A stretch of DNA of 64,000 nucleotides from an uncultured bacterium (GCA_963785075.1 CAWATW010000006.1:356412-420411), one strand, 5' to 3'; counted from the first letter of the stretch, positions 774 through 35,121 are shown. The notes: generated by a model not told the origin, from the sequence alone. Program-made: numbers and translations.

Positions 774-774
774 G

Positions 775-1341: not shown

Positions 1342-1401
1342 GATCCTCGGGGTGGTTGAGTCCGGCGAGGATAGTGCCTCGAGTCGATTACCTACCGAGC
1401 C

Positions 1402-2079
1402 TCACGGTCCGCGACCGTCCGGCCATTCCTCTGGCGGGTATTCCTCACCTTGGTTTGCCGACAGACGGGCCATGTAGGCGGCGGCTTCGCTTCGTCGGTG
1501 CATGCCCATCTTGGCGAGCATGTTCGACACGTAGTTCTTCACGGTCTTCTCTGCCAGGAACATCGCCTCGGCGATCTGCCGGTTGGTCTGGCCTTCGGCG
1601 ATGTGCTCGAGAATCGTGCGTTCCTGCGGAGAGAGCCGGGCAAGCACCGGGTCCTCCGGCTCATCACCTCGAAGTCGTCTGAACAACCGCTCGGTCATGT
1701 CGGGGTCGAGGAGCGATTCGCCGCGACCGACACGACGGATCGACTCGACCAGATCCTGGCCTTTGATTCGTTTGAGAACGTATCCGGCGGCGCCGGCGAT
1801 GATGGCCGACATCAGGGCTTCCTCGTCGGCGAACGAGGTGAGAATCAGCACCTTCACCTCTGGGAACCTCTCGCGAATCTCACGGCAGACCTCGACACCC
1901 GACCCATCGGGCAGCCGCACGTCGAGCACGACGATATCCGGATCGTCGAAACCCACCCTTCGCACGGCCTCGGCTGCGGTTGCTGCGGTGCCGACCACTT
2001 CGATGTCCTCGACGGCGTCGAGCATGGCTCGTAATCCTTCTCGGACCACTTCGTGGTCGTCCACCAACAGGACTCTCAT
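1402..2079 (-). CDS. NarL/LuxR-family response regulator, DevR/DosR-like
   Basis: ORF track, 225 aa. REC domain (MRVLLVDDHEVVREGL..VLDVRLPDGSG) plus LuxR HTH (SPQERTILEHIAEGQTNRQIAEAMFLAEKTVKNYVSNMLAKMG). From memory it is colinear with M. tuberculosis DevR, including the MFLAEKTVKNYVS recognition segment. Confidence 0.85.
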   Translation of the reverse strand: MRVLLVDDHEVVREGLRAMLDAVEDIEVVGTAATAAEAVRRVGFDDPDIVVLDVRLPDGSGVEVCREIRERFPEVKVLILTSFADEEALMSAIIAGAAGYVLKRIKGQDLVESIRRVGRGESLLDPDMTERLFRRLRGDEPEDPVLARLSPQERTILEHIAEGQTNRQIAEAMFLAEKTVKNYVSNMLAKMGMHRRSEAAAYMARLSANQGEEYPPEEWPDGRGP

Positions 2080-2187
2080 TCAATCACCTCTGGCGCAAGG
2101 GTAATTGGGCCAGGCGCAAGTGGATACTCACCTGGGCGACAACGCGCTTTCGATGGCAGGACCGGACGCTATTACGATCAGAGTCCC

Positions 2188-3294
2188 ATGGATCGAATGC
2201 CCCTCGACCGTTTCTCGATGCTGATCGAAGCTGCTGCTGCGGTGGCCGGTCAGGTCGAACTCCGCTCGGTGCTGAGGACCACCGTGCGCATGGCAATCGA
2301 GGCCACGGCTGCCTCCTACGGCGCAATCGGAGTTCTGGGAGAGCACGGAACCCTGGTGGACTTCATCTACGAGGGAATGACGCCTGAGGAGGCGGCGCAG
2401 ATCGGACCGCCGCCGGTCGGCAAAGGGGTTCTCGGTGTCTTGATCGAACACCCGGAGCCGATCAGACTCGACCGTATCGCGGACCATCCGAGCTCAGCGG
2501 GTTTTCCCCCCGGCCACCCGCCGATGACAGCGTTTCTCGGGGTTCCCGTTCGAGTAGGCGACCACGTCTTCGGCAACCTCTATCTGTCGGAGAAGGAGGG
2601 GGGGTTCACGGTCGGCGACGAGCAACTGGTGATCGCGCTGGCAGCAGTCGCCGGGTCCGCCGTGTCGGCCTCGCGCCTACATGAGCGCCTGACCCGGGTG
2701 GCGCTGGCCGAAGACCGGGAGCGCTTAGCCCGCGACCTCCACGACTCCGTGATCCAGGATCTGTTCGCGACGGGGCTCGGACTGCAGGGCTTGTCCATGA
2801 GCATCGAGGACGACGGGCAGGCTCGACGCCTGGACGAGGCAATCGAGCGCATCGATCAGGCGATCGCCTCACTTCGCACGTTCATATTCGACATCCGGTC
2901 GTTCGGATCCACCCTTGCCGATCCGGCCCGAACGATCGGCCGGATGGTCGACCGACTCGTCGGGGACCGCCCGATCGAGGTGACCCTCGACGTCGAGCAG
3001 CTGACGTCATGCTCGCCGCAACTGCTCGACGACGTGCTCGCCATCATCAGGGAGTCCGTCTCGAACGCCGTCCGCCACGGTCGGCCTCGGGCCATGACGG
3101 TTTCCGGGCGGATGGGCGATCGCGGCGTGATCCTCGCAGTGTGGGACGATGGTGTCGGATTCGATCAGGCGGAGGTCCGGCGCGGGATGGGCCTCGACAA
3201 CCTCGCTGCTCGCACCGCTGACCGAGCGGGCAGCCTTCAGATCGAAACGGCGCCTGGCGGCGGCACCAAGGTCATGGTCGAGCTTCCGGGCTGA
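2188..3294 (+). CDS. GAF-domain sensor histidine kinase (DevS/DosT-like, single GAF)
   Basis: Lies inside ORF 2053..3294. Start moved to ATG 2188 (MDRMPLDRF). GAF region (FLGVPVRVGDHVFGNLYLSEKEGG), HisKA_3 (RERLARDLHDSVIQDLF) and HATPase_c (WDDGVGF..GMGLDNL). Divergent from the response regulator gene. Confidence 0.8.
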   Translation: MDRMPLDRFSMLIEAAAAVAGQVELRSVLRTTVRMAIEATAASYGAIGVLGEHGTLVDFIYEGMTPEEAAQIGPPPVGKGVLGVLIEHPEPIRLDRIADHPSSAGFPPGHPPMTAFLGVPVRVGDHVFGNLYLSEKEGGFTVGDEQLVIALAAVAGSAVSASRLHERLTRVALAEDRERLARDLHDSVIQDLFATGLGLQGLSMSIEDDGQARRLDEAIERIDQAIASLRTFIFDIRSFGSTLADPARTIGRMVDRLVGDRPIEVTLDVEQLTSCSPQLLDDVLAIIRESVSNAVRHGRPRAMTVSGRMGDRGVILAVWDDGVGFDQAEVRRGMGLDNLAARTADRAGSLQIETAPGGGTKVMVELPG

Positions 3295-3757
3295 TCATCG
3301 GATCCGGTGCCAGGACCTTGGTCTCCACGACCACCGCCTCGGACAAGCGTTCGAGGAAGTTCCGCACGGTGGATTCTGCGACCCGATGGAGGGCGAGCCG
3401 GTCGAGCAGGCGACCCACCCCATCGAGTGGCGGCCGATAGCTACCCCTGAACTCGAGGTGGGTGCCGGATGCACCGAGTGGGGACACGACGACTTCGGCG
3501 TCCATCCGGGGAAACAGCCGCGTGACCGTAGATGCGATCCACGACATCGGGATGGTCACGGCCTCCAACCCGGCGATGGGCTCTCCGAGCTGCAGCTCGA
3601 TTGGCGCAGACACGCCTGAGCGGGGGCCCACAGCGAGCTCTTCGCCGCGCTGGAAGGCAGCAGACGCCCACACCTGAAACTCGTCTTCGGCGCTGCTCAA
3701 CATGCGTACGACGAGTTCGAAGGGTCGGGCTATCTCGATGAAGTCATAGACCAGCAT
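3272..3757 (-). CDS. hypothetical protein, tandem paralog B
   Basis: ORF track, 161 aa. Shares the C-terminal pattern G(S/E)YRPP..G..G...DRL.LH.VAE....FLE with the adjacent 3785..4255 product. Last gene of the CBS operon. Confidence 0.6.
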   Translation of the reverse strand: MLVYDFIEIARPFELVVRMLSSAEDEFQVWASAAFQRGEELAVGPRSGVSAPIELQLGEPIAGLEAVTIPMSWIASTVTRLFPRMDAEVVVSPLGASGTHLEFRGSYRPPLDGVGRLLDRLALHRVAESTVRNFLERLSEAVVVETKVLAPDPMISPEARP

Positions 3758-3784
3758 GTCGGGCTCCCCCCACGGGGCAGGTTG

Positions 3785-4255
3785 TCAGATCGGTACACCT
3801 GAAAGGGCATCGAGAGCGGCGGCCGCCTTGCCAAACCGCCGGGTGATCGCCTCGAAGTAGCCGTCGATCGCGGCTTCCGCCACATGATGCAGACCGAGCC
3901 GATCAGCGATGGCCCCCAGGGCACCCGCCGGCGGCCGGTACTCGCCTTCCAGGGCGAGACTCACTCCGCCACTGTGCACCGCGACGACCTCGATCTCCGC
4001 GCTCAGAACAGGGAACGAATCGGATTCTGGATCGGCCTCGATCGTGAACGGGACGACGGCCATCTCGAGCGGCGCGTCCATCACCACCAGTTCACCACAC
4101 ACGACTCGAATCGGGTGCGCCACCTCGAACCCGAAGACATCCACGGACAGCGACGCCGAATCCGAGCCGAGAAGCTCCTGCGGGCAGTCCTCGAGCAGCT
4201 TGACCGCCGAGGCCATCGACACGCCGAGTCGTATCTCACGACTCACCTTCGCCAT
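3785..4255 (-). CDS. hypothetical protein, tandem paralog A
   Basis: Lies inside ORF 3785..4417. Start moved to ATG 4255 (MAKVSREIRL), 1 nt after the CBS gene stop. Contains EGEYRPPAGALGAIADRLGLHHVAEAAIDGYFE, paralogous to 3272..3757. Confidence 0.6.
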   Translation of the reverse strand: MAKVSREIRLGVSMASAVKLLEDCPQELLGSDSASLSVDVFGFEVAHPIRVVCGELVVMDAPLEMAVVPFTIEADPESDSFPVLSAEIEVVAVHSGGVSLALEGEYRPPAGALGAIADRLGLHHVAEAAIDGYFEAITRRFGKAAAALDALSGVPI

Positions 4256-4256
4256 G

Positions 4257-4643
4257 TCAGCCCCCCTTTCCGATCGGCTCCCGCAGGGCCCAGAGAATGT
4301 CCTTGATCGAGACGATGCCCAGCAGTGCCCCATCTTCGACGACGGGGAGGTGGCGATACCCGGTCGCCAGCAGCCACTCGGCGGCGTCTTCGACGTCGAC
4401 CGTCGGGGAGAGCACATCGGGATCCGGGGTCATCCAATCGGCAACCACCTGCTCGGTGGGGTCGGATCCGTCGGCGGCGGCCCGCAGAGCATCACGCTCG
4501 GTGAAGATCCCGACCAGACGGCCCTGATCGACCACACCGATCGATCCGATCCTCTCCTTCACCATGGCCTGTGCCGCCACGGAGACCGTCACGTCGGGTC
4601 CGCAAACGCTGGCGGTTCCACCAACCAAGGTTCTGATTTCCAC
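4257..4643 (-). CDS. CBS-pair domain protein (Hrp1-like)
   Basis: Lies inside ORF 4257..4724. Start set at GTG 4643, preceded by GGAGG 6 nt upstream. Two CBS motifs (IGSIGVVDQGRLVGIFTERD and YRHLPVVEDGALLGIVSIKDIL). Confidence 0.75.
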   Translation of the reverse strand: MEIRTLVGGTASVCGPDVTVSVAAQAMVKERIGSIGVVDQGRLVGIFTERDALRAAADGSDPTEQVVADWMTPDPDVLSPTVDVEDAAEWLLATGYRHLPVVEDGALLGIVSIKDILWALREPIGKGG

Positions 4644-4760
4644 TTCGCACCTCCGTCTCACTCCACATGCTCGCCCGATCCAACCCCCAGGAGCAGGGCG
4701 GAGAGTCATGACTGGCAGGACCAAAGACCCTACGTGAAGGCCTTTTGGATCCCACGGTGT

Positions 4761-7421
4761 TCAATCCCCGGCGGTGGCTGCATCCGGACGGAACCGGCGG
4801 GTCGAGGTCTTGATCAGGTCGATCGCCAGGGCGGGCACGACGGCGGCGACGGCGATCGCAACCCATCCCTCCACGGGGAACGGAGTCGTCTCGAGGAGGC
4901 TCTGACCGATGCTCGTCGAGATCGCCGCTGCGTGAACTGCGAAGGACGCCGCGAGGGACCACAGCAGCCAGGGATTCCGGAGCCTGGTTCTGAACACGGA
5001 AGCGCCTTGGGCTCGGACCGTCAAGGCATGCACCAGCTGTACCGCGACCAGGCCCGTGAATGCCATCGATCGGGTCGTCGACCAATCCATGCCGGTGGCC
5101 ACGCCGTACCCGAACAACGCCAATGGCCCGCATGCCAAGACGGCCCCCTGCCACACCAGGCGACCCTGGTGTGCCAGACCCAGAATGTTGCGATCGAGAT
5201 CCGGTGGCCGTTTCATGATGTCCCGCGCCGGAGGATCGAGACCGAGGGCCAGTGCAGGTAGCCCGTCCGTGACCAGGTTGACCCACAGGAGCTGCACCGC
5301 AACCAGCGGCTCGCCATAGGAGGCGAATAGCAGGAACCCGGCGACCATCACGGTGATCTCGCTGAGGTTGGCGGCCAGCAGGAAGTACGTGACCTTCCTC
5401 AGGTTTGCAAAGATCGCCCGGCCCCGCTCGACGGCAGCGACGATGGTTGCGAAGTTGTCATCGGCGAGCACGACGTCCGATGCATCCTTGGCCACATCGG
5501 TGCCCGAGCCCATTGCGACGCCGATGTCGGCCATGCGAAGGGCCGGTGCATCGTTGACGCCGTCACCGGTCATCGACACCAGTCGACCGGTCTTCTGCCA
5601 CGCCTTGACGATGCGAACCTTGTCGGCAGGCTCGACGCGAGCGAATGCTCCGATCGTTTCGATCCTGCCGGCCAGCTCGTCGTCGTCCATCGCCGCCAGC
5701 TGTCCGTGATCGACCACCGACCTTCCCTGAAGCAACCCGATCTCGTCGGCGACGGCGCTGGCGGTGACGAGGTGGTCGCCGGTGAGCATCACGACGTCGA
5801 TTCCGGCAGTCCGGCAGGTGGAGATCGACTCCTGCGCCTCCGGTCGCGTCTCGTCTGCCATTCCAGCAACGCCCAGCCAGGTCAGGCCACGCTCGGCGTC
5901 CTCGAGTCGCTCAGGGAGCCCATCGAGCACCACCTCTGCCACGGCGATGGTCCTGAGCCCTCCCCGGGCGAGCATCACGACCTCCTCCAGCCTCAGCTCT
6001 CGGCCGGCCTCGTCGAGTGGAAGGTCGCCCTCGGCGCCGGCATACGCAACGGCCAGCGGCGCCACCGCCTCCGGTGCACCCTTCACAGCGACCAACCATC
6101 GATCACCGAATCGGTGGATCGTGACCATACGCTTGCGGTCGGAATCGAAGGCGATCTCGGCGACCCGTGGGTGCGCGCCCCGCAGGGCCGCGAGCTCGGG
6201 TCCCACCCATTCGGCCAGCGCCACTTCCGTCGGGTCGCCGACCAGACCCGCGTCCCCGTGACGTACGTCGGAACAAAGGGCCAATACTCTCCGGATGCGG
6301 GGCTCGGCATCACCACCGTCCGCGTGTGCCATGGCCTGCACCACCATGCGGTTGCGGGTGAGCGTCCCGGTCTTGTCGGTGCAGATGACCTGGGCGGCGC
6401 CAAGGGCCTCGACAGCAGGCAGGCTTCGCACGATGGCCTGCCGCTCTGCCATCGACCGGACCCCACGAGCCAGGGTGATCGTCGTCACGGCGGGCAGACC
6501 TTCGGGAATCGCTGCCACGGCCAGCGCCACCGCCACGAGGAAGAGCGACTGCAGCGTGCCCCCCGAAGCCAGCCCGACCACGAGCACGACCACGGCCGCC
6601 ACACCTGCCAGCAACGTCACACGCCGCCCGATCGCTGCGAGTTCGCGCTGCAGGGGCGTGGGTGGCTCGTCCTCGATGAGCATGCCCGCGATCCGCCCCA
6701 TCTCGGTGCGACGTCCGGTGCCGGTGACGATCGCCCGGCCCCGGCCCGCTGCAACATTCGTCCCGCCAAACACCATCGAGGTGCGGTCGCCCACCATCGA
6801 ATCGGATGGTGCAGGGACTGTGAGCTTCGCGACCGGGAACGACTCACCTGTGAGCGACGATTCGTCGACCGACAGTGCGATCGCCTCGAGCACCCGACCG
6901 TCTGCCGCCAGCCGGTCCCCGGCCTCGAGCACCATGACGTCACCGGGGACGAGGTCCGCGGCCGCGATCGTGACCGCCTTTCCGTCTCGCGTCACGCGCA
7001 CGGTGGGCGCGGCCAACTGCTGAAGTGCCTCCATCGCATCTTCGGCCCGCCACTCTTGCACGAATCCGATGACACCGTTGATCACGACGATCGCAAGGAT
7101 GGCGATCGCCTCCAGCACGTCGCCGAGGACCACGCCGCCCACGAATGCCGCCCCGAGCAGGACCCAGACGAGCACGCTCGTGAACTGCCGCCCCAGAACC
7201 TTCCACGCACTGGGGCGCGAACGACCGTCGAGGACGTTCGGGCCATGGACCTCGAGCCGGTGGCTCGCCTCCTCAGAAGAGAGGCCGTCCTCTCCGGCCG
7301 ACAAGAGCGCGAGAACCGCGTCGACGGTCGAGGCGTGCCAGACGGGCTCGGCCGCCTCGGTGTCCGAGTCGACACTGTCGACAGCTTTCAAGAGTCGGGC
7401 GCGAACTCGATCGCCCCGCAT
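4761..7421 (-). CDS. P-type cation-transporting ATPase (P2/Ca-type, CtpF-like)
   Basis: Lies inside ORF 4761..7595. Start at ATG 7421 with GGAGG 6 nt upstream. Contains ICTDKTGTLT (phosphorylation site), TGDGVNDAPAL and the N-terminal cation-ATPase-N segment (LSSEEASHRLEVHGPN). Confidence 0.9.
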   Translation of the reverse strand: MRGDRVRARLLKAVDSVDSDTEAAEPVWHASTVDAVLALLSAGEDGLSSEEASHRLEVHGPNVLDGRSRPSAWKVLGRQFTSVLVWVLLGAAFVGGVVLGDVLEAIAILAIVVINGVIGFVQEWRAEDAMEALQQLAAPTVRVTRDGKAVTIAAADLVPGDVMVLEAGDRLAADGRVLEAIALSVDESSLTGESFPVAKLTVPAPSDSMVGDRTSMVFGGTNVAAGRGRAIVTGTGRRTEMGRIAGMLIEDEPPTPLQRELAAIGRRVTLLAGVAAVVVLVVGLASGGTLQSLFLVAVALAVAAIPEGLPAVTTITLARGVRSMAERQAIVRSLPAVEALGAAQVICTDKTGTLTRNRMVVQAMAHADGGDAEPRIRRVLALCSDVRHGDAGLVGDPTEVALAEWVGPELAALRGAHPRVAEIAFDSDRKRMVTIHRFGDRWLVAVKGAPEAVAPLAVAYAGAEGDLPLDEAGRELRLEEVVMLARGGLRTIAVAEVVLDGLPERLEDAERGLTWLGVAGMADETRPEAQESISTCRTAGIDVVMLTGDHLVTASAVADEIGLLQGRSVVDHGQLAAMDDDELAGRIETIGAFARVEPADKVRIVKAWQKTGRLVSMTGDGVNDAPALRMADIGVAMGSGTDVAKDASDVVLADDNFATIVAAVERGRAIFANLRKVTYFLLAANLSEITVMVAGFLLFASYGEPLVAVQLLWVNLVTDGLPALALGLDPPARDIMKRPPDLDRNILGLAHQGRLVWQGAVLACGPLALFGYGVATGMDWSTTRSMAFTGLVAVQLVHALTVRAQGASVFRTRLRNPWLLWSLAASFAVHAAAISTSIGQSLLETTPFPVEGWVAIAVAAVVPALAIDLIKTSTRRFRPDAATAGD

Positions 7422-23027: not shown

Positions 23028-23103
23028 TGGCAGCCCCGACCAGGTTCGAACTGGCGTTTCCGGCTTGAAAGGCCGGCGTCCTAGACCACTGGACGACGGG
23101 GCC
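23028..23103 (-). tRNA. tRNA-Glu (anticodon UUC), CCA encoded
   Basis: Reverse complement: GGCCCCGTCGTCCAGTGGTCTAGGACGCCGGCCTTTCAAGCCGGAAACGCCAGTTCGAACCTGGTCGGGGCTGCCA. 7-bp acceptor stem, anticodon stem CCGGC/GCCGG with loop CTTTCAA, T-arm GGTTCGAACC. Confidence 0.9.
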
Positions 23104-23260: not shown

Positions 23261-23719
23261 TCAGTCCAGACCTTCGAGGGCACGTTGGATCTGGGCCGCG
23301 TGCTCCCTCGGGTGCTCCGTGTAGATGCGGAGCCAATCGTCGAGCGTGTAGTGGCCGGAGTCCTCGTGCCTCCCAGAGCGACCCAGATCGTCCACCGAGA
23401 TCCGCTCGAGGAGCTCGAGGTTCGCCAACCGAACCGCCATCAATGTGGCCAGCGAGCCTTCGATCGGCCGGTCGTACGACAACACCCGGGCGTAGTGCTC
23501 CTCGTCGTAGGCCTGGATGACGGGATCCTCCTCAGCCAAGAGCTGCCTGAGCCTGATGCAGCTCCTCAGCTCCGCGTCGGCAAGATGATGCACGACCAGA
23601 CGAGCGGTCCATCCGCTCGGCGGCGTGCGGTCGAGATCCTCTGTGGTTGCGCCTTCGAGGGCGGCGGACACGGTGTCGTAGCCCCGGCGATACTGCTCGA
23701 TGCGGTCGGCGAGGCTCAC
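23261..23719 (-). CDS. DinB-family (DinB_2) protein
   Basis: Lies inside ORF 23261..23989. GTG 23719 forms a GTGA overlap with the gltX stop. Contains WTARLVVHHLADAELR..HYTLDDWLRIYTEHPREH (His-rich four-helix-bundle pattern). Confidence 0.7.
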   Translation of the reverse strand: MSLADRIEQYRRGYDTVSAALEGATTEDLDRTPPSGWTARLVVHHLADAELRSCIRLRQLLAEEDPVIQAYDEEHYARVLSYDRPIEGSLATLMAVRLANLELLERISVDDLGRSGRHEDSGHYTLDDWLRIYTEHPREHAAQIQRALEGLD

Positions 23720-25137
23720 AGTCGAGCCCTCGCAGTCAGGATGCGTTCGAGGGATCGTTCCTTGCCGAGCGCCGCCATCGACTCGAAGAGGGGCGGGCTC
23801 ACCGACGAACCGGTGACGGCCACCCGCAACGGCTGCAGCCCCTTCCGGGCGCCGATCTCGAGCTTCTCGAGCATGGCACGCAGCGCCGTCTCGATCGACG
23901 GTGCATCGAAGGCCTCGAGACTCTCGATCCGACGCACTGCTTCGTCGAGGACGTCGGCAACCCCATCCTTGTCCATGACCTTGGACCACGAACCCTCGTC
24001 GTAGTCGAGCGATGATGCGTAGAGGAAACGCACCTGTTCCGGGACTTCGACGAGGAACTTGGTCCGCTCTTGGACGAGGGGTGCCATGGCTTCAAAAGAC
24101 GACACCTCGCCGACGCTCATTGCACGACCGAGGTCCTGCTCGACAAGGCGCCTTGCGTCCCTCGCGAACTGGTCTGGATCCATCGCTCTGATGTACTCGC
24201 CGTTGATCCAGGCCAGCTTGTCCACATCGAACACTGCCGGGTTCTTCGAGACATCGGCGAGGTCGAAGGCTGCGATCGCCTCGTCGACCGAGAAGATCGT
24301 CTGGTCGGCACCTATCGACCAGCCGAGGAGCGCCAGGAAGTTGACCATCGCCTCGGGCAGGTACCCGCCCTCGCGATACGCCTTGAGCGACGTGTCCCCA
24401 TGGCGCTTCGAGAGCTTCTTCCCGTCGGGCCCGAACAGCAGCGGAAGGTGGGCGTACGTCGGTATCTCGCCCGTGCCGATCGCGCTCGCCAGGAGGAGGT
24501 GCTTCGGAGTGGATGGCAGGAGGTCCTCCCCCCGGGCGACGTGGGTGATCCGATAATCGAGGTCATCGACGACCGATGCGAGATGGTATGTGGGCACCCC
24601 GTCTGATCGCAGAATGACAAAATCATCGACGGCGTCGGCCTCGAACCGCATGTCTCCCCGAACGAGATCCCGGAACTCGACCGGACGATCTTGCGGTACC
24701 GAGAATCGAATCGGACCGGTGCCCGAAGCCGTGTCGGGGCGCCGGATGTAGTAATTCGGGTGGCGCTTCTCGGCCTGGGCCCGCGTCCGCATCTCCTCGA
24801 GCTCGTCCGGGGATCGCGGATCGCGATAGGCAAGACCCCGATCGACCAGGTCCTCTGCGATGTCGCGATAATGATCGAAACGATCCGACTGGCGGTAGCT
24901 CCCGTGCGGCCCGCCCACGTCCACACCTTCGTCCCAATCGAGGCCGAGCCATCGGAAGCCGGCCTTGATGTCGTCCTCGTACACCTGCTCCGATCGCTCG
25001 ACATCGGTGTCGTCGATACGAAGAATGAACGTCCCACCGTGGTGCCGTGCGAAGAGCCAGTTGAAGAGCGCCGCTCGGACGTTGCCGACATGGACATACC
25101 CGGTGGGCGAAGGAGCGATTCGAACTCGGACCGTCAT
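23716..25137 (-). CDS. gltX: glutamate--tRNA ligase
   Basis: ORF track, 473 aa. HIGH-type PSPTGYVHVGNVRAALFNW, RIDDTD and KMSKS-type KLSKR. Confidence 0.92.
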   Translation of the reverse strand: MTVRVRIAPSPTGYVHVGNVRAALFNWLFARHHGGTFILRIDDTDVERSEQVYEDDIKAGFRWLGLDWDEGVDVGGPHGSYRQSDRFDHYRDIAEDLVDRGLAYRDPRSPDELEEMRTRAQAEKRHPNYYIRRPDTASGTGPIRFSVPQDRPVEFRDLVRGDMRFEADAVDDFVILRSDGVPTYHLASVVDDLDYRITHVARGEDLLPSTPKHLLLASAIGTGEIPTYAHLPLLFGPDGKKLSKRHGDTSLKAYREGGYLPEAMVNFLALLGWSIGADQTIFSVDEAIAAFDLADVSKNPAVFDVDKLAWINGEYIRAMDPDQFARDARRLVEQDLGRAMSVGEVSSFEAMAPLVQERTKFLVEVPEQVRFLYASSLDYDEGSWSKVMDKDGVADVLDEAVRRIESLEAFDAPSIETALRAMLEKLEIGARKGLQPLRVAVTGSSVSPPLFESMAALGKERSLERILTARARL

Positions 25138-27132: not shown

Positions 27133-29067
27133 TCAGATGTCGGAACCGGTACCCAGCCACCTTCGGTGCCATTCCAGAATGGCCTCGAAACGTTCGACCC
27201 GATGCCGCGGCTTCCCGCTGCGCGACATCTCGTGTCCCTCGCCCGGGAACCTCACCATCTCGGTCGGCGTGCCGTTCCTGAGCAACGCCGTGAAGTACTG
27301 CTCGGCCTGCTCGATCGGGCATCTGAGATCGGACTCGGCGTGGAGCACCAGCGTTGGTGTCGTGACCCGATCGACGACGGCGAGCGGGCTCCTCTCCCAC
27401 CAGGTCCGCCACCCCTCGGGATAGCCGGCTCCGAGGTAGCTCTCGGCGAAGACACCGGCGATGTCGGATGTTCCCGAGAAGCTGGTCCAGTTCAGGAGCC
27501 CCCGTTCCACGACCGCCGAACGAAAGCGGTCGTGGTGTCCGAGGATCCAGGCCGTGAGGAATCCGCCGTAGGAGCCACCCATGATCCCGATCCTCCCGGG
27601 ATCGAGGCGCGGATTGGCTTCGAGAGCGGCGTCGAGCGCCACGAGGACGTCTTCGACGTCGACTACTCCCCAACCATCGGCGGTGACCGCTTTCAAGAAC
27701 TCCTCGCCGCGGCCTGACGACCCTCGAGGGTTGCACGCGACGACCCCGAATCCGGCGGCGGCGTACACCTGGAACTCGTCGAAGAACCCGTCGCCGTACT
27801 GGCTGGCCGGGCCGCCGTGGATGTTCAGCAGCACCGGCACCCGACCATCCCCCGGCGGCATCACGACCCACGTGTCGACGTCGTGCGTGCCGGATCGGAA
27901 ATGACGGGGTTCGACCAATTCCACATCGGAGCGTATGGACTCCAACTCGGACTCACCGCCTTCGATCCACTCCAGCAGCGTTCCGGGCTCGACCGGTGAC
28001 GAGGCCGTGAACACTATGCGGTCCTCCGACACGTCGAACGAGCCTACGACCCGCCGCCCGCCGATGGCGACCTCGGTGGATCCGTCGGGCTCGACCCGGA
28101 GCACGTTCACCGATCCGGCGTCTTCGACGTAGCAGTACAGGGTACGGCCGCGCCATCGCATCTGTGGCGGTCCTCCCGCCAGTGACGCAACGGCACGGTC
28201 GACCGGAGCAGTGAGCCCCGTCAGACCGCGGTCGGACTCGACCCGATAGACCCCGAAGACCTGAGGAAACATCGGGTCGGTATGTCCGATCAGATGGAGC
28301 ACACCGTCGGGCCGGTAGCCGGGCATCGTCCAGAATCCCCGCTCGGCCCTGCGGATCGGGACCCGATCCCCGGCGATGGCGACCTCCCATACGTCCGTGC
28401 CGGCCGCGAGACCTTGCCTCGCGTGGCGATCGGAGACGAACGCCAGCGCAGATCCGTCCGGAGACCACGCCAGATTGCGGTCGTCATGGGGCCCGGGGGT
28501 GACACAGTCCGGTTCGGCGACGCCTTCTGGGTCGACCAGCCAGATGTGACGTTTCCGGTCGTGGGTCCAGCCCATTTGATCGAACCTGTACGGGATCGAG
28601 GTGACGCGTCGCGGTCTACCAGCTCGCTCGTCGTCATCGAGGTCGGCCCAATCGTCGTGCCATGTGATTGCGGTCACGGCGAGACGGCTGCCGTCCGGCG
28701 ACCATTCGAGCTCCTCGACGCCGAGGTCGAAGTCGGTGATGGCCGCCGCCTCGCCCCCATCGACCGGGATGACCGCCACCTGCGCCGGCTTTGAATCGCG
28801 GCTTCGGAGAAAGGCCAGACGGCTGCCGTCCGGCGACCATCGGGGTGCCGAGTCAGCTGGTCCTCCGGTCAGCCTGCGGGCTCCGGAGCCGTCATGGATC
28901 CATATCTCGCGTACATATCGATCCTCGTCGAGATCGATGGAGGTCAGGACGAACACGACCCGGTCACCGTGGATCCGAGGATCGCTGGGTGTGACGAGCT
29001 TGGAGAGATCAGAAGGTTGCACGTCGGACAGGGTATAGCCCCGAGCAACGAGCAAGAACGTGCCCAC
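27133..29067 (-). CDS. S9 prolyl-oligopeptidase/acylaminoacyl-peptidase family serine peptidase
   Basis: Lies inside ORF 27133..29175. Start moved to GTG 29067 (TTG 29055 is also possible). N-terminal PD40/beta-propeller repeats (PRWSPDGSRLAF, LEWSPDGSRLAV, LAWSPDGSALAF). C-terminal GGSYGG nucleophile and HGESD-type LVLHAESDLRCP. Confidence 0.85.
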   Translation of the reverse strand: MGTFLLVARGYTLSDVQPSDLSKLVTPSDPRIHGDRVVFVLTSIDLDEDRYVREIWIHDGSGARRLTGGPADSAPRWSPDGSRLAFLRSRDSKPAQVAVIPVDGGEAAAITDFDLGVEELEWSPDGSRLAVTAITWHDDWADLDDDERAGRPRRVTSIPYRFDQMGWTHDRKRHIWLVDPEGVAEPDCVTPGPHDDRNLAWSPDGSALAFVSDRHARQGLAAGTDVWEVAIAGDRVPIRRAERGFWTMPGYRPDGVLHLIGHTDPMFPQVFGVYRVESDRGLTGLTAPVDRAVASLAGGPPQMRWRGRTLYCYVEDAGSVNVLRVEPDGSTEVAIGGRRVVGSFDVSEDRIVFTASSPVEPGTLLEWIEGGESELESIRSDVELVEPRHFRSGTHDVDTWVVMPPGDGRVPVLLNIHGGPASQYGDGFFDEFQVYAAAGFGVVACNPRGSSGRGEEFLKAVTADGWGVVDVEDVLVALDAALEANPRLDPGRIGIMGGSYGGFLTAWILGHHDRFRSAVVERGLLNWTSFSGTSDIAGVFAESYLGAGYPEGWRTWWERSPLAVVDRVTTPTLVLHAESDLRCPIEQAEQYFTALLRNGTPTEMVRFPGEGHEMSRSGKPRHRVERFEAILEWHRRWLGTGSDI

Positions 29068-29107
29068 GTCGGTCGCGTTCCAGCTTGTTGCCTGGCGGGC
29101 TCGGCGC

Positions 29108-29144
29108 CCGGTCCGAGGTCCGGGGTCCGAGGTCCGAGGTCCGG
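29108..29144. repeat. tandem heptamer array (NRGGTCC)x5, equal to (GGACCYN)x5 on the peptidase strand
   Basis: Read directly: ccggtcc gaggtcc ggggtcc gaggtcc gaggtcc, then GGTCCGgacttCGGACC, which can fold as a hairpin. Lies 41-77 nt upstream of GTG 29067. Confidence 0.9.
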
Positions 29145-29277
29145 ACTTCGGACCCGAACACCAAACGGGAGACAATCACCACGATCCGTGCGGTCGGCGG
29201 CACGGACATCGGACCCGAAGGCCCAAACTCCAAACCGGCGCAGCAACCAGCCCGGGGTCGCGCTGTAGCCTCCTGCT

Positions 29278-29733
29278 GTGCATCGACTCATTGCCACCTG
29301 GTTCGGGACCGGGCTGATCCTCGGCAAGTTGCGAGGGTCCGACAGCGGTTCGGGCACGGTGGCTTCGGTGTTTGCCATGCTGGTGTGGTGGGCGCTCACG
29401 CCGTTCGAATGGTGGGTGCAGTTCGTCGTTGCACTGGTCGTGGCCGGGCTGTCGTTGTGGTCGGCCCGTCCGTTTGCAGGTGCGCACGCCGATCCGCCTT
29501 GGGTGGTGATCGACGAGGCGGCCGGCGCGTTGATCGCCACGATCGGCCTCACCGGATGGCCGGTGGTGGCGGCATGGTGTGTGTTCAGGCTCGCCGACAT
29601 CTTGAAACGAGTCTTCCCCGGGGTCGCTGCCGCCGAGAAGCTCCCCGGCCCGATCGGCGTCACCGCCGACGATCTCGTTGCGGGCCTCTACGGTCTCGCT
29701 GCCGGCTGGGCCGTTCAGTGGGCGCTGGCATAG
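29278..29733 (+). CDS. pgpA: phosphatidylglycerophosphatase A
   Basis: ORF track, 151 aa (GTG start). Contains WFGTGLI..GSGTVASV and VVIDEAAG..FRLADILK, typical of PgpA. Confidence 0.8.
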   Translation: MHRLIATWFGTGLILGKLRGSDSGSGTVASVFAMLVWWALTPFEWWVQFVVALVVAGLSLWSARPFAGAHADPPWVVIDEAAGALIATIGLTGWPVVAAWCVFRLADILKRVFPGVAAAEKLPGPIGVTADDLVAGLYGLAAGWAVQWALA

Positions 29734-30015
29734 GGGACCTCGACATCACGACGCGGCACATGCGGGCATGGAGGTCGCCGCCGTCATCCGGGGCCGGCGC
29801 CGATGGCGCAACTCTCGTGCGGTCCACACGGTCGGAAACGGCCCCCGACCAGGTTCCTGAGAGGTCCAACCCGCACATCTCAAATCGTCGACGGTGGCCC
29901 CGGACGTGACCATGGCCTTTGCCAACGCATCGGTACCACCGTGCCGGGCCGCCCTCGGGCCACTACGTCCACCAACGGTCCCGGTATAGAGTCGTCGGGA
30001 GACGGGAGGCGAGGA

Positions 30016-30675
30016 ATGCCGAACATCACGATGCTGGACATCGACGATCTGTTGGAATCGGAGCTCGCCGGTTTCGTGAGGAAATGCCTCCGTCATCGGG
30101 CACCGGACCCTGCGTTCCATGCCATCCAGGGACACAATCCTTCGCTCTCCAAGGCGCTCTACACGGCCTGGGGCACGGTCTTCAACACCGGGAGGGTCGA
30201 CCACAGCCTGAAGGAGATCATCCGGGTGCAGTTGTCCCGGGCGGCCTCCTGCAACTATTGAGGGAACGTCAGATCTGCTTCGGCGAAGCAGAACGGACTG
30301 ACCGAGCAGCGCATCGACGAGGGCATCGATCATTGGCGGGACAGCCCCAACTTCACGGATGCCGAGAAGATCGCGCTCGAATACAGCGAGTTGATGCAAT
30401 TCGCACCTGAGAAGATCGACGCCGACTTCTACCGGCGGCTCCAAAGCCTCTGGTCTGACGACGACATCGTCGAACTCGGGGCGTTCATCGGGTTCAACGT
30501 GGGGTATCACACGTTCTTCCGGACGCTCGATTTCTATCCGATGTTCACGCCCGACGGTCGCCTGGTCAGCCAGGAGGTCTCGAGAGCCATCTACGGCGAC
30601 ACACCCGGGTCCCACCTCGACCCACGCGTCATCGAAGCTATGGAGGCTTCGCGGTCAGGAGAGAAGCCATCGTGA
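30016..30675 (+). CDS. carboxymuconolactone decarboxylase/AhpD-like protein with in-frame TGA (candidate selenocysteine, C-N-Y-U motif)
   Basis: ATG 30016 with GGGAGG upstream. The ORF track splits it into 29803..30261 and 30391..30675, which share one frame, and TGA 30259..30261 is the only stop between them. The sequence around it reads LSRAASCNY[TGA]GNVRSA. The adjacent paralog aligns colinearly across the TGA. Confidence 0.6.
30268..30298 (+). promoter_or_regulatory. SECIS-like stem-loop 6 nt downstream of the in-frame UGA
   Basis: GUC-aga-UCUGCUUC-ggc-GAAGCAGA-acg-GAC. This gives an 8-bp upper stem, a 3-bp lower stem and a G-rich apical loop starting 21 nt after the UGA. Confidence 0.5.
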
Positions 30676-31235
30676 CCGACACGTTCATCGACCCCGTCGA
30701 TCTCGAAACGGCTCGCAAGGCCGGCCTGTCGGCGCGAATGGAGTCGCTCGCCCTCGCCGGCGACGTCGACGCCACCTTCATCCGGATCCTCGCCCGCGTG
30801 CCCGGCTACGCCGAGGCGCTGTGGGACGCGATGAGCGAATCGCTCATGGAGGGGGGCGTCGATCATCGCCTGAAAGAGCTGGTCAGGATCCAGCTCGCTC
30901 GTACCGCCCAGGACCCGTATTTTTCGTCACGGATCCGCTCCAAGAAAGCGCAGCGAGCCGGCATGACCGAAGACTACGTCGATGCTGCCTCAGGCGACTT
31001 CGAACACGAAGATCGATTCGGCGACGCAGAGAAATGGGCGCTCCGATACGCCCACCTCATGTACCGGCATCCCGAGAGGGTCGACGCCGACTTCTACGCC
31101 GAGGGCAAGCGCCATTTCACCGAGGCCCAGATCATGGAGCTCGGCGGTCTGATTGCGATCCACTACGGAATGCAGGTGTTCATGCGCACGCTGCTGCCAT
31201 CAGACCCGCCCGCCTTCTCGCACCAGGCGTCCTGA
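30672..31235 (+). CDS. carboxymuconolactone decarboxylase/AhpD-like paralog lacking the redox motif
   Basis: ORF track, 187 aa. GTGA overlap with the upstream stop. Has DPYF where the upstream paralog has CNY-TGA. Shares DHRLKELVRIQLAR, DAEKWALRY and DADFY. Confidence 0.75.
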   Translation: MTDTFIDPVDLETARKAGLSARMESLALAGDVDATFIRILARVPGYAEALWDAMSESLMEGGVDHRLKELVRIQLARTAQDPYFSSRIRSKKAQRAGMTEDYVDAASGDFEHEDRFGDAEKWALRYAHLMYRHPERVDADFYAEGKRHFTEAQIMELGGLIAIHYGMQVFMRTLLPSDPPAFSHQAS

Positions 31236-31251
31236 AACGAGTCGGCCGGCG

Positions 31252-32829
31252 TCACCCCGTCAGGTCGAGATACCGAGCCTCCTGGATGCCGTCCAGCGAC
31301 CTGAGGCCGCTGAGCTGACTGTCGGAGAGCTCCTGATCCACGTTGAGCCCCATCATGGCGGCTTCCCCGGACTCCATCGATCGGCCCACCACCATGTTGG
31401 CGATGTTGATCCGATGGTCTCCCAGGTAGGTGCCGACACGCCCGATCACACCTGGCACATCCGAGTTGCGGACGATGAGCACGTGCTCCGAGAACGGGAG
31501 CTCGACTTCGTGTCCGAGAATCTCCACCATGATCGGGCCTTTGCGAGCGATGGTCCCGGCCAGCGAAGCCGACCCGTCTTCGAGGGCGACCCGCAGGCAC
31601 GACACGTACTCCTCCGCCTCCTCCGAGGATTCGAGATCGACCACGAGGCCGCGTTGCTCGGCGATGCTCGGCGCGTTCACGTACGACACGGGCTCGGTGG
31701 AGTAACCGGACAGTGCCCCCTTGAGGAGCGCCAACTTCAGGGGACGGAGCTCATGGGTCGCGATCTTGCCCTCGGCACGAAGGGTGACACGACCCGACAT
31801 GTGGCCGGCGAGCCCGACGATCGCCTTGCCCAGCTGCTCTGCGAGGGGCAGATAGGCCTGCACCTCCTCGGTCACCTCCCGGCCCAGATCGACATTCACC
31901 GCCGAGAGCACCAGTTCGCCGCGCAACGCCGCCGCAACCGCCTCCGCCGTGTCCGTTCCCGCTTTGTCCTGCGCCTCGGCGGTCGACGCCCCGAGGTGGG
32001 GTGTGACCACCACCTCGGGCAGGTCGAACAGTGGACTCTCGGTTGTCGGCTCCACCGCGAACACGTCGAGACCGACACCGGCGACGTGGCCTGAGCGGAT
32101 GGCCTCGGCGAGCGCGTGCTCGTCGATGATGCCGCCACGCGATGTGTTCACGATGCGGACTCCCGGCTTGCAGCGGGCGAGATTGTCCTTGCCGAACAGC
32201 CCCTCGGTCTCCTTCGTCTTCGGCAGGTGAATGGTGATGAAGTCGGCCTGAGGAAACAACGCGTCGAGATCGACGAGTTCCACCCCGAGGCGTCGGGCCC
32301 GATCGACGGAGACGAAGGGGTCATAGGCGATGAGGCGCATCCCGAATGCGAGGCACCGTTGCGCCACCAGCGTGCCGATCTTCCCGAGTCCGATCACGCC
32401 CAACGTCTTCCCGTGCAACTCGACCCCTTGAAAGCTGCTGCGATCCCAGTCTCCGGTGATCAGCTTGCCGTGGGCACGGGGGACGTTTCGAGCCTGGCTC
32501 AACAAGAGCGCCATGGTGTGCTCTGCGGCCGAAATCGTGTTGGCGTGCGGGGCGTTGACGACCAGCACGCCACGAGCCGTGGCGGTTTCGAGGTCGATGT
32601 TGTCGACGCCGATCCCGGCCCTGCCCACGACCTGAAGAGCCGGTGCAGCCAGAAACATGTCTCTGTCGACCATGGTCGCGGACCGCACGATGAGACCGTT
32701 GGCGTCGGCGAGTCGACGCAGCAGCTCCTGACGGTCCAGGCCCACGGCCACGTCGACCACGCACGACTCGGCCAGGGCATCGATGCCCGACTGAGCGATG
32801 GTTTCGGCAATGACGACCTTCGGCTTCAC
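31252..32829 (-). CDS. serA: D-3-phosphoglycerate dehydrogenase (long form with ACT domain)
   Basis: Lies inside ORF 31252..33516. Start at GTG 32829 with GGAG upstream (VKPKVVIAETI). Contains GVIGLGKIG, NTSRGG and a C-terminal ACT region (VLIVRNSDVPGVIGRVGTYLG). Confidence 0.88.
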   Translation of the reverse strand: MKPKVVIAETIAQSGIDALAESCVVDVAVGLDRQELLRRLADANGLIVRSATMVDRDMFLAAPALQVVGRAGIGVDNIDLETATARGVLVVNAPHANTISAAEHTMALLLSQARNVPRAHGKLITGDWDRSSFQGVELHGKTLGVIGLGKIGTLVAQRCLAFGMRLIAYDPFVSVDRARRLGVELVDLDALFPQADFITIHLPKTKETEGLFGKDNLARCKPGVRIVNTSRGGIIDEHALAEAIRSGHVAGVGLDVFAVEPTTESPLFDLPEVVVTPHLGASTAEAQDKAGTDTAEAVAAALRGELVLSAVNVDLGREVTEEVQAYLPLAEQLGKAIVGLAGHMSGRVTLRAEGKIATHELRPLKLALLKGALSGYSTEPVSYVNAPSIAEQRGLVVDLESSEEAEEYVSCLRVALEDGSASLAGTIARKGPIMVEILGHEVELPFSEHVLIVRNSDVPGVIGRVGTYLGDHRINIANMVVGRSMESGEAAMMGLNVDQELSDSQLSGLRSLDGIQEARYLDLTG

Positions 32830-32925
32830 GTATTGCTCCGAGATGGGAAACCTGCATTGTCGTGAATCGAACGCTCGGCGACAAAGCGGCGATACCCTGT
32901 GATCACCAATATCTGGAGGAGCCCG

Positions 32926-33363
32926 ATGGGCTGGAAGCCCGCACATGTCATCGCCGCAGTCGATGGCTCGGATCAAAGCGTGGCTGCTGCACGTGCTGCA
33001 GTCGAAATCGCCCGTGACACAGGGGCAAGACTGACGTTCATCACGGTCGTACGCCCGCCCGAGGGATGGTGGGGCCTCGAAGGCGCGCCTCCGAGCCCCG
33101 AGGTCCTGGCGGAGGCGATCGCCGGTGGCCGGCGTGAGCTGAACAGCCTGATCTCGACCCTGGAGGTCACAGATCTGGAGGTGGACACTGCCGAGGAGCT
33201 GGGTGACCCCGCCGGGAAGATCATCGACCTCACCGAACAAACCGGCGCCGACCTGCTCGTCATCGGACGGAGAGGGGCGGGTCTGGTGGAACGGATGATG
33301 ATGGGATCGGTCGCGGACCGCCTTGCTCACAATGCTCCGTGCCCGCTCCTGATCGTTCCGTGA
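32926..33363 (+). CDS. universal stress protein (UspA family)
   Basis: Lies inside ORF 32899..33363. ATG 32926 with GGAGGA 6 nt upstream. Contains VIAAVDGSDQS..LLVIGRRGAGLVERMMMGSVADRLAHNAPCPLLIV. Confidence 0.82.
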   Translation: MGWKPAHVIAAVDGSDQSVAAARAAVEIARDTGARLTFITVVRPPEGWWGLEGAPPSPEVLAEAIAGGRRELNSLISTLEVTDLEVDTAEELGDPAGKIIDLTEQTGADLLVIGRRGAGLVERMMMGSVADRLAHNAPCPLLIVP

Positions 33364-34199
33364 GTCCCGGAGCGGTAGACACTGCCGAGCGTCGGCTGAG
33401 AGACGCAATCGAGCCGTTCCACGGCCTGTGCTACTACGTGCCCGAGGTCCGGGCCCGGTACGTCGACGACCTGGGACTCCACCCGTGGTCGGCCTATTTC
33501 GCTCAACGGGCTGCACCCATGGGTGCCGTGGGCGCCGCAGTGGTCACCGCGCTGTTCTATGGATTCAGTCCCCGGCTGGTCGGGCGAAGCATCCCTGCCG
33601 TCTGGGAGTCGATCGCACCGGCGGAGGCATGGGAAGACCGAGTCCGCGGCGTCTCGGCCGCGCTCGACCGGCTGCTGAGCCATACAGAAGGCACGGAGAT
33701 CGACATGGCCGCTTCGATCGCCTCCAAAGCGGTGACAGCGATGGAACCGGCAGGGCGCCCACAGGCGGCCGCCCTCGCTGCGATGGATGTGCCCGACACT
33801 CCGCTCATGCGTTTGTGGCGCGACGCCTCGGCGCTCAGAGAATATCGGGGAGATGGCCATGTGGCGGCCCTGGTGTCGCACGGGCTCGGGCCCATGGACT
33901 CGCTCATCACCTCGGCGGGGTTCTCGAACCTGTCGCTGTCGTTCCACCAGCGCGCACGAGGATGGTCCGAGGAGGAGTGGTCGGCCGGCGTCGAACATTG
34001 CCGATCGGACGGTTGGATCGACGCCGAAGACCGCCTGACCGATCGAGGATTGAAGCTCCGGCTCGACATCGAATCGACGACCGACCGGTCGATGGCCGCT
34101 GTCACGTCCGCACTCACGGAGGCCGAGATGGAGAGCCTGACCAAGACGTTGCGCGTCCTCAGTCGCCAAGTCGTCGAGGCAGGCGGATTCCCGGTCTGA
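33360..34199 (+). CDS. hypothetical protein
   Basis: Lies inside ORF 33339..34199. GTG 33360 forms a GTGA overlap with the usp stop. No motif confidently recognised (contains LREYRGDGHVAAL). Confidence 0.55.
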   Translation: MSPGAVDTAERRLRDAIEPFHGLCYYVPEVRARYVDDLGLHPWSAYFAQRAAPMGAVGAAVVTALFYGFSPRLVGRSIPAVWESIAPAEAWEDRVRGVSAALDRLLSHTEGTEIDMAASIASKAVTAMEPAGRPQAAALAAMDVPDTPLMRLWRDASALREYRGDGHVAALVSHGLGPMDSLITSAGFSNLSLSFHQRARGWSEEEWSAGVEHCRSDGWIDAEDRLTDRGLKLRLDIESTTDRSMAAVTSALTEAEMESLTKTLRVLSRQVVEAGGFPV

Positions 34200-34218
34200 T
34201 CCGCGATACTGGCCTTCG

Positions 34219-35121
34219 ATGACTCAAGAGCAGGAAGGCAAACACCCGCGGCCGCCGGTGGATCGGGTCACCCCCGACACCTTCGAACGGCTCGACGCGC
34301 TGAGCCGTCCACTGGCGGAACGTGTCCTCAATCGTGCCATCGCGCTCCACCATGACGAGGTCCATGGTCCGGACCGGATCACCAGGAAGCAACTGGATCA
34401 GATCGCGAAGGAGCTCGGGATCGAACCAGAGTTCGTGCAGGCGGCTCTGGTCGCCGAGCTCGAGACCGGCCGCGACGCCGACGCTCGTTCGGTCAAGGCG
34501 TTGTTTCTGGCACCCGACAGGATAACCGGGGGACGGATCGTCGAGGCCGACCGGTCCACCGTCGAACGGTCGATCATCGAATGGCTTCGCGGCGAAGAAG
34601 GTTTTCGACCGAGAAGCAAGACCGGGTCCGGGTACAAGTGGGAGCGAGACGACCACTGGGCCACCAAGCTCAGAATGTCCTTCGGCGGAAGCAAGCCTTC
34701 GCTGCGCGGCCTGAAGACGGTCACCCACCGACACACCGACCTCGGTGACGGCCGCCACCTCGTGGAGCTGGACGCCGACGCCAAGGTGGTGTCGATGACC
34801 GGAGCCGGACTCATCGCCGGCTTCGGAGCGGCGTCGGTGCTCGGCGGGGTGGCTGCTGCTGCGGGTGTGGCCGGGGGCAACGACCTCGCCCAGTTCCTCA
34901 CCGCCATGGTGCCCACCGCCGTCACCGGACTGGCGGCGGGACTGATCACTGCCAAGACCTGGTCGGCGAGCATCAGGCGGGGAATCGACCGTGCATTGGA
35001 CGGCATCACATCCCCGGAGCTCCATCACAGCCGGCGCTCGAGGACGAAACGGAACCGGAAGACCGGCATCGCCAGGGTGCTCGACGACATCGGCGACGCC
35101 ATCGAGGACCTCTTCGACTGA
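34219..35121 (+). CDS. hypothetical membrane protein
   Basis: ORF track, 300 aa. Soluble N-terminal half, two Gly/Ala-rich TM segments (GLIAGFGAASVLGGVAAAAGVAG; AMVPTAVTGLAAGLITA) and a basic tail. Confidence 0.55.
   Translation: MTQEQEGKHPRPPVDRVTPDTFERLDALSRPLAERVLNRAIALHHDEVHGPDRITRKQLDQIAKELGIEPEFVQAALVAELETGRDADARSVKALFLAPDRITGGRIVEADRSTVERSIIEWLRGEEGFRPRSKTGSGYKWERDDHWATKLRMSFGGSKPSLRGLKTVTHRHTDLGDGRHLVELDADAKVVSMTGAGLIAGFGAASVLGGVAAAAGVAGGNDLAQFLTAMVPTAVTGLAAGLITAKTWSASIRRGIDRALDGITSPELHHSRRSRTKRNRKTGIARVLDDIGDAIEDLFD

Follow-up and report, generated by a model that had tools for sequence, protein, structure and literature searches.

The DNA analysed here is a stretch of 64,000 nucleotides from an uncultured bacterium (GCA_963785075.1, CAWATW010000006.1:356412-420411), referred to below as the window, with a G+C content of 65.5%. 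Its plus strand carries, at positions 30016-30675, a gene of the carboxymuconolactone decarboxylase (CMD)/AhpD superfamily which is interrupted by one in-frame TGA codon and which very probably encodes a selenoprotein. Three features make up the locus: the interrupted gene itself, a short hairpin resembling a selenocysteine insertion sequence (SECIS) inside the gene (30274-30292, plus strand), and a second CMD gene lacking the redox cysteines directly downstream (30672-31235, plus strand). The interrupted gene runs in a single frame of 220 codons from ATG 30016 to its own stop, TGA 30673-30675, and TGA 30259-30261 is the sole internal stop. The open reading frame (ORF) list of the window cuts it at this codon into two pieces, 29803-30261 and 30391-30675; a first-pass annotation, made from the sequence alone, had placed both pieces in one frame with no other stop between them, and translation bears this out. 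With the internal TGA read as selenocysteine (Sec82), the predicted product is 219 residues long. A C-x-x-U redox motif opens with Cys79, whose TGC codon lies at 30250-30252 on the plus strand, and the residues around the TGA read LSRAAS-C79-N-Y-[TGA]-G-N-V-R-S-A-S-A-K-Q.

Several features of the reading frame support this gene model. A Shine-Dalgarno-like GGGAGG (30004-30009, plus strand), read off the sequence, is located 6 nt 5' of ATG 30016. The N-terminus predicted from this start, MPNITMLDI, is common to the homologues, which indicates that the longer ORF beginning at 29803 is spurious. With Cys placed at the TGA position, the Pfam CMD domain (PF02627) matches residues 50-122, across the TGA, with a score of 37 bits against a cutoff of 23 (E 3e-9). 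TGA is also the usual stop codon in the window, where it ends 50 of the 56 candidate ORFs, the selenoprotein gene included, and a reassigned genetic code is therefore excluded. A scan of positions 29600-31500 found no promoters or terminators.

Relatives of the gene were collected from a scan of one genome per species, in which 214 genomes contained a relative, and from a metagenome scan, which gave at least 354 further relatives. We kept 80 genome loci and 80 metagenome loci for analysis, and these are the 160 loci counted below; comparisons of 81 sequences refer to distinct sequences compared codon by codon. Besides the window, TGA is present at the Sec codon in all 160 kept loci, and TGC or TGT in none. 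The metagenome-assembled genomes (MAGs) carrying the TGA gene are labelled Acidimicrobiia, Nitrospinota, Rhodospirillales and other Alphaproteobacteria, SAR324, Chloroflexota, Tectomicrobia and others. Cys79 is invariant in the 81 sequences, being encoded by TGC in 55 and by TGT in 26. Downstream of the TGA many residues are invariant among the relatives, and comparison of the window with 15 relatives reveals that changes 3' of the TGA fall mostly on third codon positions (19/14/50 for the three positions against locus L002), with an alike pattern upstream. This third-position bias indicates that the downstream part is translated in this frame, and together with the CMD domain spanning the TGA it upholds the earlier view that this part is protein-like and not decayed. 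In this orthologous group Sec seems to have become fixed: a Cys form is absent from all 160 loci.

In protein collections the same genes appear in a broken form. A protein search gave almost exclusively fragments of 120-144 residues which start with MRSASAK... at the GTG of the G-N-V that follows the stop, and also seven 'full-length' proteins in which the stop is replaced by W. The DNA behind one of the latter (protein P0004, locus L085) has TGA at that codon, and the gene caller also overran the true stop, so the W is an artefact of translation with genetic code 4. In a library of clusters at 50% identity, eleven N-terminal fragments have as their last residue the one just ahead of the Sec column, and C-terminal fragments start within a few residues past it.

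The internal TGA coincides with a known redox position of the fold. A phmmer search of the PDB sequences matches S-C-N-Y-[U]-G-N-V-R to G-C-A-F-C-V-D-M-H in Atu0492 and to G-C-A-Y-C-V-N-M-H in PA0269, and a family profile pairs C-N-Y-U with C-M-Y-C of the debrominase Bmp8, its best PDB match (E 1.5e-10). In all three proteins Cys79 falls on the first Cys of the CxxC motif, and the TGA on the second. The profile was also run against 1.8 billion cluster representatives, where it retrieved many distant full-length homologues with C-E-[YF]-C-G-N-Q-R-S, in which Cys occupies the Sec column, as well as proteins of the paralog type with D-x-Y-F. The proposal that the TGA stands at the second Cys of an AhpD/CMD motif is thus supported by Atu0492, PA0269, Bmp8 and the distant homologues. 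An alignment with Cys-containing orthologues had been suggested as a check; none was found among the 160 loci, and Cys at this column comes from the distant homologues and the PDB proteins. Three distant homologues (P0154, P0205 and P0230) have W at the Sec column, in C-E-Y-W-A-T-H-R-S, C-S-Y-W-G-S-V-R-T and C-R-Y-W-T-H-H-H-T, respectively; these could represent additional CMD subfamilies with a TGA codon that was translated by code 4. An AlphaFold2 model built from the relative P0004, with W at the Sec position, is all-helical with the AhpD/CMD fold (predicted local distance difference test score, pLDDT, 82), and resembles Bmp8 and AhpD-core PDB proteins of unknown function.

The hairpin lies immediately 3' of the TGA. 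It consists of an 8-bp stem (30274-30281 paired with 30285-30292) closed by a GGC loop (30282-30284), has the sequence UCUGCUUC-GGC-GAAGCAGA and folds with -16.8 kcal/mol. Its apical loop starts 21 nt after the UGA, exactly as first noted. RNAalifold analysis of the 81 sequences gives a consensus with a 7-bp core (30275-30281/30285-30291) and a triloop, in which the stem pair 27/41, formed by 30276 and 30290 in the window, covaries (U-A in 62, C-G in 17 and U-G in 2 sequences). At the codon level, codons 87 and 92 change together, from TCT...CAG in 59 sequences to TCC...CGG in 17, with two U-G intermediates, and the change from U-A to C-G costs the protein a Gln-to-Arg replacement. The codons at the centre of the hairpin, 88-91 (GCT TCG GCG AAG), have a codon entropy of 0 bits, that is, they are identical wherever the majority amino acid is present (80 of 81 sequences at codon 88 and 81 of 81 at codons 89-91), compared with 1.2-2.3 bits for flanking four-fold codons. 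One relative (L086) has the loop GUC on an intact stem, so that what stays constant in the loop is its first G. No unusual fold is present in the equivalent region of the paralog (z = 0.16) or after the terminal TGA (z = 0.03). The hairpin of the first-pass annotation is therefore retained in part: the inner stem and the GGC loop stand in the consensus, and its outer GUC/GAC stem (30268-30270/30296-30298) was rejected, as the bases vary freely and the pairing is absent from the consensus of the 81 sequences. Like the bacterial SECIS of the E. coli fdhF type and of the Zhang and Gladyshev consensus, the element is a stem-loop that lies within the coding sequence just 3' to the UGA. It differs from these in having a GGC triloop (GUC in L086), a perfect 7-8-bp stem and no bulged U. 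We infer from its position and conservation that the hairpin acts as a bacterial SECIS and is a candidate SelB site, and the gene appears, from the sequences compared, to have spread across phyla with an almost unchanged SECIS.

The gene downstream encodes a CMD paralog of 187 residues with a Pfam CMD match and with D-P-Y-F where the selenoprotein has C-N-Y-U. Its GTG start overlaps the selenoprotein stop (GTGA), and the two proteins are 38% identical over 142 residues. The paralog is located directly downstream in 80 of the 81 genome sequences (the 80 loci and the window) and in 75 of the 80 metagenome loci; the loci without it have no sequence beyond the selenoprotein gene. The first-pass annotation considered that a CxxU member next to a motif-less paralog would be notable here, and these counts reveal that the paralog is the rule of the family. 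Gaps between the two genes are mostly -36 to +52 nt, and the stop of the first gene often overlaps the start of the second. Clustering of the flanking ORFs of the 80 genome loci shows that the paralog is the only universally conserved neighbour. Across 79 paralog sequences, 31 positions keep their residue in at least 97%, and there is no conserved Cys pair.

Natural fusions of the two genes are also present. In a SAR324 locus (L065, 3001-4281) the selenoprotein and the paralog are fused in one frame, with 344 residues after the TGA, and in the proteins P0006, P0007 and P0009 (P0009 being labelled Betaproteobacteria) the C-terminal piece of the selenoprotein runs straight into the paralog. Five further proteins of about 320-370 residues (P0010 and P0012-P0015) are assumed to be the same fusion on the basis of their length and query coverage alone. 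That the two genes invariably adjoin and are in places fused suggests that the selenoprotein and the paralog may form a hetero-oligomer. One locus (L168, 3001-3546; protein P0033) encodes a chimera of the N-terminal half of the selenoprotein and the C-terminal half of the paralog, which has G-D-S-Y-F and no Sec codon and looks like the product of a deletion or recombination between the tandem paralogs. The chimera lies between a thioredoxin gene and a TGA-interrupted peroxiredoxin (Prx)-like gene (3653-4123; F-Y-R-G-H-W-U-P-Y-C), with an OsmC gene nearby.

A link between this family and the Sec machinery comes from an alphaproteobacterial locus. When E. coli SelA, SelB and SelD were compared by tblastn with the window and with 165 loci (1.24 Mb), only L058 was matched (MAG OFTM101, JAJFIX010000009.1; 1-6606), and in this locus the gene pair is situated inside a sel cluster. 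The cluster comprises selB (2-1423, minus strand; TIGR00475, 380 bits), selA (1420-2838, minus strand; TIGR00474, 577 bits), the selenoprotein gene (3001-3684) followed by the paralog (3737-4276), and a gene (4318-6579) for a fusion of a pyridine-nucleotide-disulfide oxidoreductase with SelD, of 753 residues with the motif C-G-G-C, which matches TIGR03169 and TIGR00476. All four NCBIfam models score above their cutoffs. ARAGORN found no tRNA-Sec within the 6.6 kb of this locus. On the contig of locus L024, from the Acidimicrobiia MAG 13_May_SF_Bin27, a Prx-like ORF (L104, 1641-2339, minus strand) has an in-frame TGA in F-L-R-G-D-W-U-P-Y-C, after which 186 residues continue; it is located about 8 kb from the CMD selenoprotein gene and is a second candidate selenoprotein on an Acidimicrobiia contig.

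The window itself is assigned, by sequence comparison, to an Acidimicrobiia genome: its GltX is 94% identical to a protein on another contig, and every named match is to an Acidimicrobiia MAG. Sec decoding had been considered uncommon in genomes of this type. That statement needs qualification, as, according to a 2026 preprint, each of the 84 complete Actinomarinales genomes carries selA, selC and selD together with a divergent selB, and Sec-trait transfers among Actinobacteria have been described in the literature. Actinomarinales are tied to Acidimicrobiia here by the preprint's retrieval with the term 'Acidimicrobi'. The gene in the window is indirect evidence for Sec decoding in this soil or sediment Acidimicrobiia lineage, in agreement with the Actinomarinales preprint.

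Taken together, the 160 of 160 TGA codons, the invariance at synonymous sites, the covariation and the linkage to sel genes in L058 argue for what the first-pass annotation had proposed, an AhpD/CMD-type selenoprotein with a SECIS-like hairpin. We assign a probability of about 0.88 to the complete explanation, in which positions 30016-30675 encode a 219-residue CMD/AhpD-superfamily selenoprotein with the motif Cys79-Asn-Tyr-Sec82 and in which the UGA is decoded by means of the SECIS. On the evidence of the comparison, UGA 30259-30261 would be decoded as selenocysteine, the hairpin at 30274-30292 bringing SelB with its Sec-tRNA(Sec) to a ribosome that has stalled at this codon. The selenoprotein gene would be translationally coupled to the Cys-less paralog. 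In the enzyme, Sec82 would attack the substrate, being probably the nucleophile, and Cys79 would resolve the selenenylsulfide; a thiol reductant would then recycle the enzyme, and the paralog might be a structural or regulatory partner.

Several observations weigh against this explanation. The window contains one tRNA gene, for Glu, and tRNA-Sec was not found in its 64 kb; neither were selA, selB and selD, by Pfam on 40 ORFs or by tblastn. The first 60 genome loci and the 80 metagenome loci likewise gave no tRNA-Sec with ARAGORN. Taken alone, the hairpin is weakly unusual (z = -1.87), with 11 of 200 shuffled sequences folding as well, so its significance comes from the comparison with relatives and not from single-sequence stability. 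Rfam gave no relevant match, either for the whole window at the gathering threshold or for 30100-30500 at a permissive one, and appears to contain no model for this hairpin. The AhpD-type His that follows the motif by four residues (C-V-D-M-H, C-V-N-M-H) is Arg here (U-G-N-V-R); the same Arg is present in Cys-type relatives, which makes it a trait of the subfamily and not a consequence of Sec. The neighbours in the window are pgpA, the CMD paralog and serA, with no peroxiredoxin (ahpC) gene adjoining, and the AhpD-like function is for this reason only an analogy. To our knowledge, selenium incorporation has not been experimentally demonstrated for any member of the family.

Other fates of the UGA can be weighed against the same data. 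It is conceivable that UGA 30259 is read through without Sec, a near-cognate or suppressor tRNA inserting Trp, Cys or Gly and the hairpin slowing the ribosome or stimulating the read-through. The lack of Sec machinery in the window and the W that some public gene callers put at this codon fit such a scheme. However, TGA is an ordinary stop here and the W calls are code-4 artefacts that overrun a real stop. Moreover, the codon occupies the position of a redox Cys, where Trp or Gly would destroy the motif, and insertion of Cys gives no reason for the use of TGA over TGC or TGT in 160 of 160 loci. With the linkage of the family to selA, selB and selD in L058 added, we consider read-through of this kind highly improbable.

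Public annotations suggest another arrangement, in that they give an 81-aa gene and a gene of about 134 aa starting from the GTG of G-N-V. TGA 30259 would then be a true stop between an 81-residue piece and an internally started C-terminal piece, the hairpin mediating coupling or re-initiation. In the window, however, the Val codon is GTC, which is not a start, and the first in-frame start is TTG 30391, so that residues 83-125 would go untranslated despite being strongly conserved as protein. Only 33 of the 81 sequences have GTG as this Val codon, and the CMD fold and its CxxC-type motif would be cut in two. A split gene of this kind has, in our view, only a slight chance of being correct. An in-frame stop situated in a region of housekeeping type, where Sec machinery is not seen, could also be taken for a nonsense mutation that truncated an AhpD-like gene and left the downstream part decaying. 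A pseudogene is hardly compatible with the same TGA in 160 of 160 loci across phyla, with the third-position-biased divergence and many invariant residues 3' of the TGA, with a hairpin conserved at synonymous sites, or with an intact and coupled paralog downstream. It has a negligible probability, and on the comparative sequence data it is already refuted for practical purposes.

What the predicted selenoprotein might do can be approached from its structural relatives. M. tuberculosis AhpD and the AhpD-core proteins (PDB 2prr, 6k40, 7xw1, 2gmy and 2ijc) have in common with it the all-helical CMD/AhpD fold (Foldseek template modelling (TM) scores of 0.5-0.78), and the AhpD-core proteins have a C-x-x-C-type motif at the same position, whose second Cys aligns with the TGA. 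In M. tuberculosis AhpD this second Cys, Cys133, attacks AhpC as the nucleophile, in keeping with a Sec at that position. The window protein differs from AhpD in having Sec for Cys and Arg for His, a Cys-less paralog as partner and no ahpC adjoining in the window; it also bears a conserved C-terminal extension of 60 residues (GFNxGYHTFFxTLDFYPMF...). Some related loci do have a Prx-like gene next to the pair. In 9 of the 165 loci (L009, L015, L016, L018, L019, L020, L090, L092 and L100), mostly Acidimicrobiia-labelled MAGs or unlabelled metagenome contigs, the selenoprotein gene is directly preceded on its own strand by a Prx-like gene with WCPFC in the motif F-Y-R-G-[AS]-W-C-P-F-C; the window has pgpA where those nine loci have this gene. 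In a tenth locus (L093) the Prx-like WCPFC gene is on the opposite strand. The upstream Prx-like genes and the context of the L168 chimera favour a peroxide or thiol redox role, and by analogy the most likely role is an AhpD-like one, in which a selenol/thiol oxidoreductase would re-reduce a peroxiredoxin-type partner.

Bmp8 (PDB 6ohi/6ohj) is the best match by fold as well (Foldseek E 1e-4, TM 0.58/0.64), and its dehalogenation mechanism is thiol-based. It shares only about 22-23% identity with the window protein. Bmp8 is a Cys enzyme from a gene cluster for bromopyrrole biosynthesis. Nothing in the window or in the related loci suggests halogenated substrates. A different function can be pictured from this likeness and from the gene pairing, in which the two proteins would form an obligate heteromeric selenoenzyme whose job is perhaps Bmp8-like reductive dehalogenation or selenium handling and not the classical AhpD-type recycling of a peroxiredoxin. 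Selenium handling is hinted at by the position of the gene inside the selB-selA/selD cluster of L058. We consider such an enzyme unlikely.

The novelty of the gene was overestimated at first, as the family has been in print since 2005. Zhang, Fomenko and Gladyshev (2005, Sargasso Sea; PMC1088965) list in their supplement AACY01716242 and AACY01688758 as selenoproteins named 'CMD domain-containing protein'. AACY01716242 is published there as VDHKLKEVIRVQLSRAADCNYuGNVRSASAKQQGLTEE, and AACY01688758 has ...IRVQLSRAADCNYuGNVRSASAKQQGLTEE... in common with it. The 2008 Global Ocean Sampling (GOS) supplement of Zhang and Gladyshev (PMC2398784) contains JCVI_READ_1558542, with MPNISMIDIADLEK...CNYUGNVRSASAKQQG...FYPMF, apparently under the heading AhpD-like 1, to judge from where it stands in the file. 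Over 179 residues this read and the window protein are 69% identical. The PF02627 domain, the CxxU motif, its flanks and the TGA codon are all common to the 2005 family and the window gene. The members of 2005 and 2008 are short marine shotgun reads of unknown organism, whereas the gene described here is complete, from Acidimicrobiia and in its full operon context. In the text of the two papers so far as it was accessible, figures aside, the downstream Cys-less paralog, the fusions and the near-invariant SECIS sequence are not mentioned. A 2026 review still includes 'CMD-like protein, PF02627, CxxU' among the selenoprotein families.

Current annotation models do not capture the family, and no NCBIfam model reaches its cutoff. 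The best match is NF053654, a YciW-related (seleno)protein (72.1 bits against a cutoff of 310), followed by TIGR01926, a peroxidase-related enzyme (30.3 bits against 81.8), which is the model given for 'AhpD-like protein' in the 2026 review. Both describe CMD-superfamily proteins with Sec-containing members, as here, but the scores are far below the curated cutoffs. The lack of a model at cutoff explains the repeated mis-annotation by pipelines, in which gene callers give hypothetical proteins of 81 aa and about 134 aa or a code-4 translation, an error that recurs across hundreds of public MAGs. In the corrected model the gene encodes a CxxU selenoprotein of 219 residues. The gene is thus a mis-annotated further member of the selenoprotein family predicted in 2005 and not a new category. 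For a family known from bioinformatics alone since that year, the present analysis offers as leads the invariable Cys-less partner with its fusions, the near-invariant 18-nt SECIS core with one covarying pair, and the occasional linkage to Prx-like genes and, in one locus, to sel genes.

A few other features of the window were noted. Eight other TGA-interrupted coding regions in the window were rejected, as they resemble shadow frames or neighbouring genes, and only 30259 is convincing. At 34159-35121 a plus-strand ORF of 300 residues with no Pfam match overlaps long minus-strand ORFs with equally high G+C at third codon positions (GC3). The minus-strand frame in this region has a TGA at 35027 flanked by high-GC3 sequence and is probably a shadow frame. 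The minus-strand ORF 31252-33516 (754 codons) and the CMD paralog are convergent, their stop codons being 16 nt apart; the SerA (D-3-phosphoglycerate dehydrogenase) domains of this ORF match only from residue 234, and its true start is probably about 230 codons further in. On the other side of the selenoprotein gene, a GGTCCGA heptamer is repeated 4.9 times in tandem (92% matches) at 29110-29143. The repeat falls within the annotated 5' end of a minus-strand ORF for an S9 peptidase (27133-29175), and pgpA (29278-29733) starts about 135 nt downstream of it. The gltX gene (23716-25137, minus strand) is located about 600 nt from the tRNA-Glu(UUC) gene (23028-23103, minus strand).

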